NCBI RefSeq assembly: GCF_902652985.1 | Contig: NC_047026.1 | Span: 2,831,307 to 2,895,306, forward strand | Source of the DNA: Pecten maximus | Taxonomy: Eukaryota | Direction of reading: 5' to 3' | Length of the DNA stretch: 64,000 nucleotides | Shown: piece by piece, positions 9,512 to 62,459 of the stretch | How the letters are laid out: each line of letters starts with the position of its first letter | Position numbering within the stretch: the stretch's first letter is position 1 | Translations under genes and position numbers: made by a program | Notes under the pieces: model-generated | What the model was told of the DNA's origin: nothing | The model's input: the letters and a program-made list of their open reading frames with translations, nothing else | Database searches by the model: none

Positions 9512-11008
9512 GGTTCCCCTTGGTGCCTAGTTGTGCATATTGCATTTTGGGACCGATCGGAAAACAACATGGCCGACAGGCAGCCATCTTGGATTTTGAC
9601 AATTGAAGTTTGTTATCTCTATTTCTGAGAAAGTATTGAAGAGATCTTTCTCAAATTTCATATGTAGGTTCCCCTTGGTGCCTAGTTATGCATATTGCAT
9701 TTTGGGACCAATCGGAAAACAACATGGCCGACAGGCAGCCATCTTGGATTTTGACAATTGGAGTTTGTTATCGCTATTTCTGAGGAAGTACTGAAGGGAT
9801 CTTTCTCAAATTTCATATGTAGGTTCCCTTTGGTGTCTAGTTATGCATATTGCATTTTGGGACCAATCGGAAAACAACATGGCCGATAGGCAGCCATCTT
9901 GGATTTTGACAATTTGAGTTTGTTATCGCTATTTCTGAGGAAGTACTGAAGGGATCTTTCTCAAATTTCATATATAGGTTCCCTTTGGTGCCTAGTTATG
10001 CATATTGCATTTTGGGACCAATCGGAAAACAACATGGCCGATAGGCAGCCATCTTGGATTTTGACAATTTGAGTTTGTTATCGCTATTTCTGAGGAAGTA
10101 CTGAAGGGATCTTTCTCAAATTTCATATATAGGTTCCCTTTGGTGCCTAGTTATGCATATTGCATTTTGGGACCAATCGGAAAACAAAATGGCCGACAGG
10201 CAGCCATCTTGGATTTTGACAATTGAAGTTTGTTATCGCTATTTCTGTGAAAGTACTGAAGGGATCTTTCTCAAATTTCATATGCAGGTTCCTCTTTGTT
10301 CCTGGTTATGCATATTGCATTTTGAGACTAATTAGAAAACAACATGGCCGACAGGCAGCCATCTTGGATTCTGACAATTAAAGTTTGTTATCGCTATTTC
10401 TGTGAAAGTAATGAAGGGATCTTTCTGAAATTTCATATGCAGGTTCCCCTCAGTGCCTAGTTATGCATATTGCATTTTGAGACCAATCGGAAAACAACAT
10501 GGCCGACAGGCAGCCATCTTGGATTTTGACAATTGAAATTTGTTATCGCTTTTTCTGTGAAAGAACTGAAGGGATCTTTCTCAAATTTCATATGGAGGTT
10601 CCCCTTGGTGCCTACTTATGCATATTGCATTTTGAGACCAATCAGAAAACAAAATTACTGACAGGCAGCCATCTTGGATTTTGACAATTAAAATTTGTTA
10701 TCGCTATTTCTCAGAAAGTAATGAAGGGATCTTTCTGAAATTACATATGCAGGTTCCCCTCAGTGCCTAGTTATGCATATTGCATTTTGAGACTAATCAG
10801 AAAAAAACATGGCTGACAGGCAGCCATCTTGGATTTTGACAATTGAAGATTGTTATCGCTATTTCTGTGAAAGTACTGAAGGGATCTTTTTCAAATTTCA
10901 TATGTAGGTTCCCCTCAGTGCCTAGTTTTGCATACTGGGACCAATACGAAAACAACATGGCCGACAGACAGCCATTATAGCTAAATCTTAAATTCTATAT
11001 ATAAGTTC
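9512..11008 (+). repeat. 155-bp satellite array (~9.5 monomers). The right end carries a ~50-bp conserved non-satellite terminus shared with the inverted array at 61050-62459.
   Basis: Monomer 'ggttccccttggtgcctagttatgcatattgcattttgggaccaatcggaaaacaacatggccgacaggcagccatcttggattttgacaattgRagtttgttatcgctatttctgaggaagtactgaagggatctttctcaaatttcatatgta'. Period is 155 bp, measured between successive 'catggccgaca' anchors at 9568, 9723 and 9878. The left edge decays into a degenerate monomer. The right edge ends in 'ccattatagctaaatcttaaattctatatataagttc'. Confidence 0.9.
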
Positions 11009-11244
11009 TAAAATAAATTACGTATGAAACTGGTGACAGCTGGATTCCCACACCTTGTTGACAAATCCCCACACACGCGAAGCCATTGAGACATCGTGAA
11101 ATTTTATTATAACATATTATAAACAGCCTTTTTAGTGACATGCAACTTTGATATACATATCTATATATGTATATGTTAAAACAAATGATAGTGACCTCGT
11201 GGAAGAAAATATATTGAAAATAGTAGAAACCCACACAGAGACAC

Positions 11245-11324
11245 GTTAGCACTTTCGCTCCATCATTGGAACTCTTCAGACTTGGAATATCTAAGAGCTC
11301 CCATGATGGAGCGAAAGCGCTAAC
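11245..11324. repeat. Hairpin / inverted repeat (24-bp arms, ~35-bp spacer)
   Basis: 'gttagcactttcgctccatcat' and 'ccatgatggagcgaaagcgctaac' are reverse complements. Confidence 0.7.
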
Positions 11325-58320: not shown

Positions 58321-61049
58321 ACACGTGCAAACACGTGTATTCTTGGCACGCAGAACACACGTGTATATAATCCAAAACCACAGTGAGAGAATTTTCTCTA
58401 ACTCGTATATAATGTATTTTGGAATGTAAACCATGAATTTTTTTTTTATTGCAGAAAAACTACGAACTGAATCTAAGCCACAAGAAGAATGACATTTCTA
58501 TAAACATCTCGTGCAACACGTGGTTGGCGATCAAGAAACACACATGCGTTAGATGGAGATGAGGTTTTGTTTGAAAATTAGTCGTGACTTGATGCCATAA
58601 AAAGTTCCATTTTAAACTGAAACTGGTAGTTTTACAAAATTTCGTTTTGAAGTGCAAGGCTTGTTATTTTTGTTATACATGTATCTAAGTCCCTACATTT
58701 TTTATATATAAAACGTTTGTTTGATTTATATTAACATTGTAACATTATGTAACTTGTTATTTTGTTAAAATGTTTCAGTCACCATATTTTGTAGGCAACA
58801 TGTGTTACATGTACGTAGCTAAAATATATAAAACGTTTGTTAGATGTACATTACCATTGTGACAGTATGTAATTGTTTTTATTGTTTTGATAAATAGCTT
58901 TGTTGTACGTTTAATATTACCTGTACTAGTGTATGTATGTCATTTTTGTTCTTAGTTGTCAATCCTCTTTTTGTTAAATTCCAAAAGAAATAAAATGCAT
59001 TTACAAAATCACATTCGCCAAAAACGCTTACTGGCAAAAGTATTGAAGAAAACAAGATTTTGTCAACGTTTTGAGCTACTTGAAAAACTCCAGTGTAAAT
59101 TTCAACATCACGACCGTCAACATAACAGGCTACGCTGATAATTGTTGGTATAAGAATTGATTTGAAGTTATAATCGCCGGGATTTGCTTGAAAGCTTCAT
59201 CTTGTGTTGATAACTTTTCCTAGATCATTGATCACATTAATATATTCCTGGTTTTGACGAAAGAAAACATGACGGATGTCATTTGTGCTTGCAGGGTATG
59301 TTAGATAAGAAAACAAGCATTGTCAGAACACGTGGATTTTTCTTTCGGGTTTTTTCTTTGCATTTGATGTCTAGATTATCATTGCTGTCATATCGCGCTG
59401 TTCTTCAAATTCTATCATCTTTTCACATGTTTACTCTTAAAAGATAGCTACAGCTGTATAAGACTAGACTTTGGAATATTGCTTGTCCTTATGTGACCTT
59501 AGCTGTTGCGATGATTTCAATGCTTGCAAAAACAAAACAAAATTTTAATATTTTCAGATAACAATTTGTCACATCCATAAACTTATCTACGTTGCATAAT
59601 TTCTGTGAAATTCTTTCCAATCAGTCTTTCCATAGAGCGAAATACGTGCATTCGTTGTACATACACAGTTCATTAAAAGACAATGTCCCTTAAAGAGTAT
59701 TCAGCGAGACATCACGGTGCCAAATAAATAAGTCAATTTTACGGCAATGTTTAATGATGATATCCCAATGCAAAGGCATAACACTACAGTTTGTGTACAA
59801 TTAGAAGAAATGCCATCCTCAAGCTACTAAACGTTGTTTCTACTCAACTTTACAGCGTCTGTCAGCAATTTATTAGTGCATTGCGTGCACGTTGATTTCT
59901 CGCGGAAGATTGCCTAGTGAAAGAACTGGCTACTTCACTAATCAATTGATTTTTCTTCGGCACGTTCTGGTCTTGCAGAGTTCGCTGAAGAGCGATTTGA
60001 TCCGTTATACTACTTGCAAAATATGTATATGTAGGATTAGCAGAATTCCTGTGATTTCATCTTTTTTCAATTGATTGGTTTTCACCGCTTTCGGTCATTA
60101 CCCACGACTTCCGTCAATGACCTCCATGGTGACGTTGTGGACATAAAAGTCAATAGTGCGCCGTGGTGCAAACTGATATCTGGATATCTGAAACATACTA
60201 GTGTGTCATTTTTTTTTCTTCGTAGCTTTTCTATCAAATTGGAATGGTAAGAACTTTGAACACGAAAACTCAGAAATATCCAAAAACATGGTTATGAGAT
60301 GCTATTGAAGGAAACATTGCCATTTGATACATAGAATGTCTTGTAGAGGACATAAGAAGGTTAACGCAATCGATTGTTGCTTTCGTCATAGCCTTTGTTT
60401 GAGGAACTGATTTCTGTGCACAGATGATTAAGTGGGTCAAATGTCTTTGACCGCATTACTTTCTCTCTCTCTCGGTCCATGGTAAATTTTGTAACTGTTG
60501 CCTCTGTCAGTTCTGACTGGACATTCACATCGTTTCTTTTGTCACCTGGGTGCCATAAGTACATTTTATATTTCAACTCTCGTGTATAATCGATAGCATT
60601 TCTCGGCCTATACCACAAATGTTGTTAGAAGATAATGACACATTTCAACATTTCACTCTTTTGTTATAAGGACCGAAATAATCTCTTTTAGCCATTCTTA
60701 ACCGAAAGGCCAAACGAGAAAACTATGCCATGACGTAGTTTCTGTCGGCTCAAGATGAAATATTCCAATAAAAGATTACTTGTCCAAAGCGGCCAAAAGG
60801 GTATTGGCTAAACAACATTTTCAAGTTAACACGTAAGGCAACATGAACTGGGACACAACAACAACGAGCAAAATGATACATTTTTATTAAAACAAGAGAT
60901 CCCAGAGGGATCTTGGCGCCCACCATTGAATGATCTTTATAGGTTCCATGTCAGATTGATCTTTTCTCTACTTTTCCCTTCTTGTAAGTCTTACTAATCT
61001 GTGTAAATTCAGAAACAGCCCTCTATAGCTAGTATTTTTCCAACAAGGG

Positions 61050-62459
61050 GAACCTATATATAAAATTTAAGATTTAGCGATAATGGCTGTCTGTCGGCCA
61101 TGTTGTTTTCCGATTGGTCCCAATATGCAAAACTATATATAGCTAGGCACTGAGGGGAACCTACATATGAAATTTGAGAAAGATCCCTTCATTACTTTCT
61201 GAGAAATAGCGATAACAAACTTAAATTGTCAAAATCCAAGATGGCTGCCTGTCGGCCATGTTGTTTTCTGATTGGTCTCAAAATGCAATATGCATAACTA
61301 GGCACCAACGAAAACCTACATATGAAATTTGAGAAAGATCCCTTCAGTACTTTCTCAGAAATAGCGATAACAAACTTCAATTGTCAAAATCCAAGATGGC
61401 TGCCTGTCGGCCATGTTGTTTTCCGATTGGTTTCAAAATGCAATATGCATAACTAAGCACCAAGAGGAACCTACATATGAAATTTGAGAAAGATCCCTTC
61501 AGTGCTTTTTGAGAAATAGCGATAACAAACTTCAATTGTCAAAATCCAAGATGGCTGCCTGTCGGCCATGTTGTTTTCCGATTGGTCTCAAAATGCAATA
61601 TGCATAACTAGGCACCGAGAGAAACCTACATATGAAATTTGAGAAAGATCCCTTCATTACTTTCTGAGAAATAGCGATAACAAACTTCAATTGTCAAAAT
61701 CCAAGATGGCTGCCTGTCGGCCATGTTGTTTTCCGATTGGTCTCAAAATGCAATATGCATAACTAGGCACCAAGAGGAACCTACATCTGAAATTTGAGAA
61801 AGATCCCTTTTGTGCTTTCTGAGAAATAGCGATAACAAACTTCAATTGTCAAAATCCAAGATGGCTGCCTGTCGGCCATGTTGTTTTCCCGATTGGTCTC
61901 AAAATGCAATATGCATAACTAGGCACCAAGGGGAACATATATATGAAATTTGAGAAAGATCCCTTCAGCACTTTCTGAAAAATAGCGATAACAAACTTCA
62001 ATTGTCAAAATCCAAGATGGCTGCCTGTCGGCCATGTTGTTTTCCGATTGGTCTCAAAATGCAATATGCATAACTAGGCACCAAGAGGAACCTACATCTG
62101 AAATTTGAGAACGATCCCTTTTGTGCTTTCTGAGAAATAGCGATAACAAACTTCAATTGTCAAAATCCAAGATGGCTGCCTGTCGGCCATGTTGTTTTTC
62201 GATTGGTCTCAAAACGCAGTATGCATAACTAGGCACCAAGGGGAACATACATATGAAATTTGAGAAAGATCCCTTCAGTACTTTCTGAGAAATAGCGATA
62301 ACAAACTTCAATTGTCAAAATCCAAGATGGCTGCCTGTCGGCCATGTTGTTTTCCGATTGGTCTCAAAATGCAATATGCATAACTAGGCACCGAGGGAAA
62401 CCTACATATGAAATTTGAGAAAGATCCCTTCAGTACTTTCTGAGAAATAGCGATAACAA
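61050..62459 (-). repeat. 155-bp satellite array (~9 monomers), inverted relative to 9512-11008, with the shared conserved terminus at its left end (61050-61100)
   Basis: The monomers are the reverse complement of the 9.5-kb array monomer. The left end 'gaacctatatataaaatttaagatttagcgataatggctgtctgtcggccatg' matches the reverse complement of 10955-11008. The right end is a degenerate partial monomer that abuts a SINE tail. Confidence 0.9.

Follow-up and report, generated by a model that had tools for sequence, protein, structure and literature searches.

Two inverted 155-bp repeat arrays in the scallop Pecten maximus as probable cargo of a non-autonomous Helentron-type element family

The window analysed here is a 64,000-nt stretch of Pecten maximus DNA (contig NC_047026.1 of assembly GCF_902652985.1, positions 2,831,307 to 2,895,306 of the forward strand), in which two tandem arrays, A and B, are built from the same 155-bp monomer and lie in inverted orientation ~50 kb apart. 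The arrays are probably (with a rough probability of 0.85) tandem repeats carried inside the non-autonomous Helentron-type elements (HINEs) of a single family with a scallop host, element B being complete and element A truncated. The arrays were located using Tandem Repeats Finder (TRF), and the elements were delimited with the help of four metagenome contigs, L001 to L004. The two arrays and the two elements are as follows.

9498-10975, plus strand: array A, 9.6 copies of the 155-bp monomer, 92% matches, score 2361 (TRF)
9498-11008, plus strand: element A, family copy truncated at both ends, consisting of 9.6 monomers (9498-10975) and terminal monomer remnants (10972-11008)
61083-62459, minus strand: array B, 8.9 copies of the 155-bp monomer, 92% matches, score 2350 (TRF)
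60892-62578, minus strand: element B, probable complete non-autonomous Helentron-type element (HINE), 1,687 bp, delimited by alignment with L001-L004 and by unrelated flanks

The anchor GCAGCCATCTTGGAT was found 9 times in A (plus strand) and 8 times in B (minus strand) at strict 155-bp steps, with one 156-bp step in B. Inverted matches between A and B extended up to 756 nt at 92%, and mean monomer identity was 91.0% within A, 94.4% within B, and 91.5% between A and B. Given the TRF arrays, the exact anchor steps, the inverted matches, and the monomer identities, the arrays and their inverted orientation are real and far above chance. A sequence-only reading of the same DNA had described two inverted arrays of one 155-bp monomer with ~9 copies each, and TRF, anchor spacing, and inverted matches agree on this. 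TRF reported an extra 466-bp period in B, corresponding to a 3-mer higher-order repeat, which A does not have. The coding origin of the monomer was tested using open reading frames (ORFs) through the arrays, which gave no Pfam match above threshold.

Each monomer had also been said to contain a YY1-like GCCATCTTG motif and CCAAT. The former is present in every monomer; the latter occurs in all monomers of B, in 7 of the ~9 monomers of A, and in none of the sister family on L001. Variability is lowest in the stretch GCCATCTTGGATTTTGAC of the monomer: among 31 monomers taken from five loci, it is 0.013-0.015 per site there, compared with a mean of 0.058 over the monomer. This box contains the GCCATCTTG core, has no mismatch in 17/17 window monomers, and persists in the sister family of 90% identity.

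Element B is ordered as left flank (LF), microsatellite, 155-bp array, monomer remnants, and right flank (RF). Its parts are listed from the 5' end to the 3' end.

62568-62578, minus strand: 5' subterminal inverted repeat (subTIR) AGCCCACCATC, with TT before it in 3/3 available 5' ends
62553-62563, minus strand: inverted repeat (IR) GATGGTGGGCT, pairing with the 5' subTIR over a 4-nt ATCA loop (DNA fold)
62469-62537, minus strand: (CCGT)n microsatellite, (ACGG)n on the plus strand, ~17 units (TRF)
62450-62473, minus strand: fixed microsatellite-to-array junction TCCGTAAACAATTCTTGTTATCGC, a clean entry into the first monomer, the same in L004
61040-61240, minus strand: position-specific terminal variant monomer, internally deleted monomer, and start of another, also in A, L003, and L004
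60927-61039, minus strand: RF unique spacer, 113 bp, not monomer-derived, with no significant monomer match
60917-60926, minus strand: 3' subTIR ATGGTGGGCG, reverse complement of the 5' GCCCACCAT
60897-60913, minus strand: 3' palindrome AGATCCC-TCT-GGGATCT, 3 nt after the subTIR and 5 nt (CTTGT) before the end at 60892

The limits of B were placed at 60892 and 62578 because homology among all aligned copies stops at these boundaries, which fall between ..TT and AGCCCACC at the 5' end and directly after CTCTTGT at the 3' end. The subTIR pair has a perfect core of 9 bp, the 5' GCCCACCAT being the reverse complement of the 3' ATGGTGGGC (60918-60926), and is conserved in L001-L004. The LF hairpin, AGCCCACCATC-ATCA-GATGGTGGGCT (62553-62578), folds into an 11-12 bp stem of -14.1 kcal/mol (z = -7.9, with 0/200 shuffles as stable); its IR is identical in L004 and diverged in L002, and a 31-nt spacer lies between the hairpin and the microsatellite. 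The microsatellite gave 11 matches to GTCCGTCCGTCC compared with 0.01 expected. In the RF, the palindrome folds at -7.7 kcal/mol (z = -2.6), and the last bases of the element, CTCTTGT (end 60892), are followed by TTTAATAAAAA, starting TTTAAT. L001, L002, and L003 share one RF 35-mer (0.00 chance occurrences expected in the window) without any difference up to and including CTCTTGT and diverge beyond it, and the L004 contig stops 1 nt past the palindrome.

Neither LF nor RF of B has significant similarity to the monomer. Within the 64-kb window, no other LF or RF copy of B's family, no second such microsatellite, and no Rep/helicase plus AP-endonuclease ORF was found. The next base is T at 4/5 3' ends and TT precedes the 3/3 5' ends, the flanks of B are T/A-rich, and no target-site duplication (TSD) was seen. 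At the 5' end of B, the inverted repeat lies at or very near the terminus, at the 3' end ~26 nt inside it; the flanks have only single T's in common. Directly upstream of B, at 62650-62810 (minus strand), a tRNA-like stretch (...GGCTGGCTTAGAGCGGTAGGC...CCAGGGTTCGATTTCCCGATCGG...) with box-A/box-B-like motifs is followed by an A/T-rich tail that holds B. The stretch looks like the head of a tRNA-derived short interspersed element, and received no ARAGORN or Rfam call.

Copies beyond the window were sought in public metagenome contigs by a protein-space search and an exact DNA search. The protein-space query was a synthetic protein made by six-frame translation of the consensus trimer, which returned one predicted protein, P0125, on L001; the exact search of the metagenome contigs with 27 nt of the RF returned L002, L003, and L004. 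The monomer core, RF, and LF had no match in the scanned viral contigs or bacterial/archaeal genome contigs. The flanks of L001-L004 had no match to the window. L001 is a 1,158-bp ENA metagenome scaffold with 156-bp monomers 90% identical to the window consensus, and downstream of its array it carries the RF ATGGTGGGCGCCAAGATCCCTCTGGGATCTCTTGT as in B, then unrelated sequence. P0125 (191 aa, L001 302-877) was rejected as a real protein, being a read-through of 156-bp monomers, whose length is a multiple of three and so keeps the frame, with no Pfam domain above threshold.

L003 and L004 hold B's 155-bp monomers in at least 6.6 and 6.9 copies, with a period of 464 bp in L004. The LF hairpin and the microsatellite-to-array junction of L004 are identical to those of B, with ~3 microsatellite units versus ~17 in B. 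L002 combines an identical RF with a diverged LF (AGCCCACTATC ... GGATGGTTGGCT, microsatellite GTCCGTGGTCCGTCCGTCTGT) and unrelated 147-bp central repeats. Repeat orientation and array junctions are the same in B, L003, and L004, and L001 and L002 have the same layout. Between the fixed junctions, the body is variable, with monomer numbers from 6.9 to 9.6 and ~3 to 17 microsatellite units. L003 and L004 are collinear at 95.4% over their overlapping 1,192 bp, array included, which is consistent with entire arrays being copied together with the element.

A 3-monomer period of ~465 bp is common to B (61083-62459) and L004 1512-2567 and is not found in A; this 3-mer organisation may be older than the insertions of B and L004. 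L002, a marine-metagenome contig, contains an array of 166 bp x 5 and a complete small 147-bp-repeat HINE with B's termini (93-924 and 1449-1810), as well as a solo 5'-truncated 3' end (2851-2885), so that several family members lie within 4 kb of presumably bivalve DNA.

A 10835-11008 aligns to the reverse complement of B down to 61050, and the homology stops after GTTC. This shared end (10972-11008 in A, 61050-61086 in B) had been taken in the sequence-only reading for a non-satellite terminus of 37-50 bp that marks the end of the element and stops sharply against unrelated DNA in both places. A shared end does exist, but it is derived from the monomer. Aligned to three consensus monomers in tandem, it is GCCAT / TATCGCTA / ATCTT / AAATTTTATATATAGGTTCCCCTTG: one monomer has lost two or three internal segments, and the beginning of another comes directly after it. 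The shared end of B scored z = 6.2 against shuffles when aligned to the monomer consensus, and BLAST matched the shared end to many monomers at 87.5% over 32 nt (E=8e-6). The sharp stop applies to A only, whereas B continues for 158 family-conserved bp (61049-60892, 97.4% identical to L003), and the supposed terminus therefore lies ~160 bp inside the true 3' end. The shared-end string is likewise internal at L003 998-1029 and L004 2555-2586, with spacer, subTIR, and palindrome after it in both; the check whether the terminus occurs at the two window loci alone thus returned further copies with different flanks. The point at which two copies stop matching is here the truncation of the shorter copy, not the end of an element.

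The shared end forms no hairpin (fold z ~0) and has no CTRR end, and a Helitron-like 3' hairpin, looked for near 10960-11010, was not found. Just before the shared end, A and B have in common a variant monomer in which ACAGACAGCC replaces ACAGGCAGCC, with GGGACC and an indel in the TAGTTATGCATATTGCATTTTG region. The opposite ends of the arrays had been described as decaying into degenerate monomers; B instead starts at the fixed junction after (CCGT)n, which is also present in L004, and A has a sharp start at 9498, no degenerate monomers of significance having been found around it, including upstream of 9498. The true termini at 62578 and 60892, the microsatellite, and the hairpins had been overlooked.

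Both limits of element A fall within repeat units, the start (9498) within a monomer and the stop (11008) within a monomer remnant, and the element has no LF, microsatellite, or RF. It had been read as an element with a defined end; it is truncated at both ends, and it lost, or never had, both flanks. Since A carries the position-specific terminal monomers of the family, its source was an element of B's family rather than a free-standing satellite. In the final ~200 columns of the alignment, identity was 93.7% for A-B, 93.0% for B-L003, and 89.8% for A-L003; A and B show no monomer-by-monomer colinearity, and their flanks are unrelated. As A and B are about as divergent as unlinked copies and are not colinear, A is not a recent local copy of B, and the simplest reading would make A and B two old, independent events. 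This agrees with the earlier preference for two insertions over one giant element or a local inverted duplication, given the unrelated flanks and an A-B divergence equal to that between B and unlinked copies. About 200 bp downstream of A, an inverted repeat of ~68 nt at 81% (11209-11276 versus 11293-11360) spans 11209-11360; it has no relation to the HINE and is possibly a small element that forms a hairpin.

The assignment of both arrays to one HINE family is supported by fixed ends and array junctions that recur across unlinked loci, by the same termini around different cargo in L002, and by the presence in B, in the right order and orientation, of every module listed for Cg_HINE of the oyster Crassostrea gigas and for DINE-1/HINE elements. 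The proposal that the arrays are cargo of a non-autonomous mobile element is upheld by these fixed modules, which recur in L001-L004 with unrelated flanks, and the guess at a Helitron or Helentron in a bivalve was right for the Helentron branch, the host being a scallop and B having the full HINE module set. Several points weigh against the assignment. The perfect subTIR core of 9 bp is shorter than the 11-15 bp quoted for HINEs (PMC4067079; PMC7492417). A is without terminal structures, and its origin by transposition is drawn only from the family-specific terminal monomer remnants. The copies seen amount to a handful (the window and four metagenome contigs), and L003 and L004 could be alleles or an assembly split of one locus and not two insertions. 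The Helentron class itself is suggested by architecture and sequence comparison.

Under the HINE assignment, the Rep/helicase-endonuclease of an autonomous Helentron elsewhere in the genome would recognise the subTIR and hairpin ends in trans, and the whole unit including the array would be moved by rolling-circle (peel-and-paste) transposition. Targets would be TT or T-rich, with no duplication of the target site. The numbers of monomers and of microsatellite units may later drift by slippage or unequal exchange, and copies would be eroded by truncation or deletion.

For A alone, another origin is possible at somewhat less than even odds: a fragment may have been copied ectopically, through reintegration of extrachromosomal circular DNA, patching in double-strand-break repair, or gene conversion, or a full insertion may later have been eroded by two deletions. 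The abrupt start inside a monomer at 9498 and the stop in a monomer remnant at 11008 would fit, as would the lack of a second LF, microsatellite, or RF in the window besides B's, and truncated HINE derivatives are reported as common (PMC7492417). Nothing separates these routes from one another. A direct repeat flanking A (AAAATAAAT..TACGTA, 9412-9434 and 11010-11024) was considered as a TSD and rejected as chance, being equalled in 276/1000 shuffles and 258/1000 random window pairs. Also against this origin, Helitron-type elements are known to leave truncated copies.

Two further, improbable ideas are that the GCCATCTTGGATTTTGAC box is a selected putative protein-binding site, for the Helentron Rep or a host factor, and that A is an element array which seeded a new satellite locus without element ends. 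If the box is such a binding site, the elements would scatter clusters of ~9 phased sites beside scallop genes and would not be neutral cargo.

It is very unlikely that the family is a cut-and-paste miniature inverted-repeat transposable element (MITE), bounded by inverted repeats in terminal or subterminal position and giving a TSD of an AA/TT dinucleotide. Inverted repeats do lie near both ends, T (A on the other strand) flanks both, and the paper on DTC84 of Donax trunculus takes AA as the putative TSD (PMC3879986), DTC84 and the pearl elements having originally been so classified. Later literature, however, reassigns this architecture to Helentrons through autonomous partners that share the subTIRs and the 3' stem-loop, with no target-site modification (PMC7492417, PMC4067079), and the ends of B are asymmetric, with a hairpin and microsatellite at one end versus a palindrome and short tail at the other. 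The Helentron class is favoured over a MITE because of these asymmetric ends and the later literature.

Even less probable is a local inverted segmental duplication, in which a single satellite locus would have given rise, without transposition, to an inverted copy ~50 kb away. Both arrays do lie in one 64-kb window, with the same deleted terminal monomers and similar copy numbers (9.6 and 8.9). Their homology, however, is limited to the array and remnants, A having neither the LF nor the RF of B and the flanks being unrelated; the 93.7% identity of A and B is no higher than the 93.0% between B and a copy on an unrelated contig; the monomers have no positional colinearity; and the same terminal remnants are found in L003 and L004 with other flanks. 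An ordinary satellite kept by unequal crossing-over, with coincidental flanking motifs, would fit the homogeneity of the arrays (91-94%) and the 3-mer higher-order period of B, but can practically be dismissed, as the fixed junctions, LF, and RF recur on independent contigs, the same termini surround unrelated central repeats, and the RF 35-mer has a chance count of 0.00 in the window.

Other features of the window include a 352-aa ORF at 39819-40877 (minus strand), which belongs to a spermine-oxidase-like gene and forms one of its exons, a large one. Its identity to Pecten maximus XP_033757047 is 99.35% over 308 aa, with two amino acid differences that suggest another individual or haplotype, or P. 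jacobaeus; to Argopecten and Ylistrum it is 96%, and to Mizuhopecten 93%. By this exon, the window belongs to P. maximus or a very close relative, and thus to a scallop rather than an oyster. A tRNA-Phe (GAA) gene at 52516-52591 (minus strand, Rfam 69.8 bits) lies ~400 bp from a tandem array of 30 bp x 8.7 at 52999-53260. The other short-unit tandem arrays of the window are as follows.

3066-3508: 79-bp unit
14958-15987: adjoining arrays of 50-bp and 45-bp units
16255-16422: 32-bp unit
23816-24607: 28-bp unit, 27.5 copies
25097-25499: 48-bp unit
53697-53870: 40-bp unit
56737-56952: 22-bp unit

None of the short-unit tandem arrays of the window has the LF or RF of B's family.

The 155-bp family, or HINEs in Pecten, had no description in the searchable literature, a scope outside which Repbase, Dfam, and subscription papers on scallop satellites fall, and the Pecten genome paper, as searched, made no mention of Helitrons. 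When exact strings from the monomer core and the LF hairpin were looked up in the literature, none of the long ones turned up, and the two 11-mers appeared solely in papers whose titles do not concern bivalve repeats. The exact termini and fixed internal anatomy (LF hairpin, microsatellite, fixed array junctions, position-specific terminal monomers, and RF palindrome AGATCCCTCTGGGATCT) could be used to annotate the family in Pecten genomes. As a pectinid example, the family would join those of oysters, clams, and mussels, in which short satellite-like arrays in bivalve euchromatin are carried by non-autonomous Helentrons and not generated locally.

Elements of this kind have already been well described from bivalves and insects. 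B was also considered as a canonical Helitron (5'-TC...CTRR-3', 3' hairpin, insertion between A and T), with which it would share the presumed rolling-circle movement, the 3' hairpin, the lack of a TSD, and the non-autonomous carrying of cargo. This was rejected, as its ends are (T)AGCCCACC, beginning (T)AGCCC..., and ...CTCTTGT and not 5'-TC/CTRR-3', it has subterminal inverted repeats, and it is flanked by T-rich sequence and not an A^T target.

The DINE-1/HINE elements of Drosophila, mites, and mosquitoes (Thomas, Vadnagara & Pritham 2014, PMC4067079) are like B in the subTIRs, the IR near the 5' subTIR, the microsatellite, the optional central tandem repeats, the 3' stem-loop near the end, the apparent preference for TT or T-rich targets, and the boundary T strings. 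In contrast to them, B is without the conserved DINE-1 'core' block, and its palindrome lies just 5 nt from the 3' end. In the HINE literature, the IR complementary to the 5' subTIR is 1-22 bp away (PMC4067079; PMC7492417).

The pearl elements (CvA, CvE, and CvG) of Crassostrea virginica and DTC84 are likened to B by description, not by sequence. They have flank, core repeats, (ACGG)n, flank, and short inverted repeats, the (ACGG)n motif being common to B, DTC84, and CvG/pearl; a fixed array-microsatellite junction, a variable number of core repeats, position-specific variants on the junction side, and boxes of reduced variability in the core repeats are shared as well (PMC3879986). They differ in having up to ~5-6 core repeats versus ~9 here and in having first been classed as MITEs with an AA TSD.

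For Cg_HINE, an LF with a 5' subTIR, a complementary IR at a distance of 1-12 bp, and a microsatellite of tetranucleotide units (frequently GTCC or GTCY) is followed by a satellite-like array and an RF with a 3' subTIR and palindrome; insertion is T-rich or TT, with no TSD, in both orientations, and with many truncated derivatives (2020, PMC7492417). The family described here differs in its host (scallop versus oyster), in its number of monomers (~9 versus an average of 3.6 in the oyster), in its perfect subTIR core (9 bp versus 11-12 bp), and in its RF from the last monomer remnant to the end (~150 bp versus ~60 bp); its 155-bp monomer, compared by description and not by sequence, differs in length from all 13 consensus sequences listed (138-181 bp). 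It resembles Cg_HINE in module order and orientation, monomers of ~140-180 bp, apparently T-rich insertion sites, both orientations, and truncated derivatives, and some Cg_HINE share flanks but differ in their central repeats, as L002 does from B.

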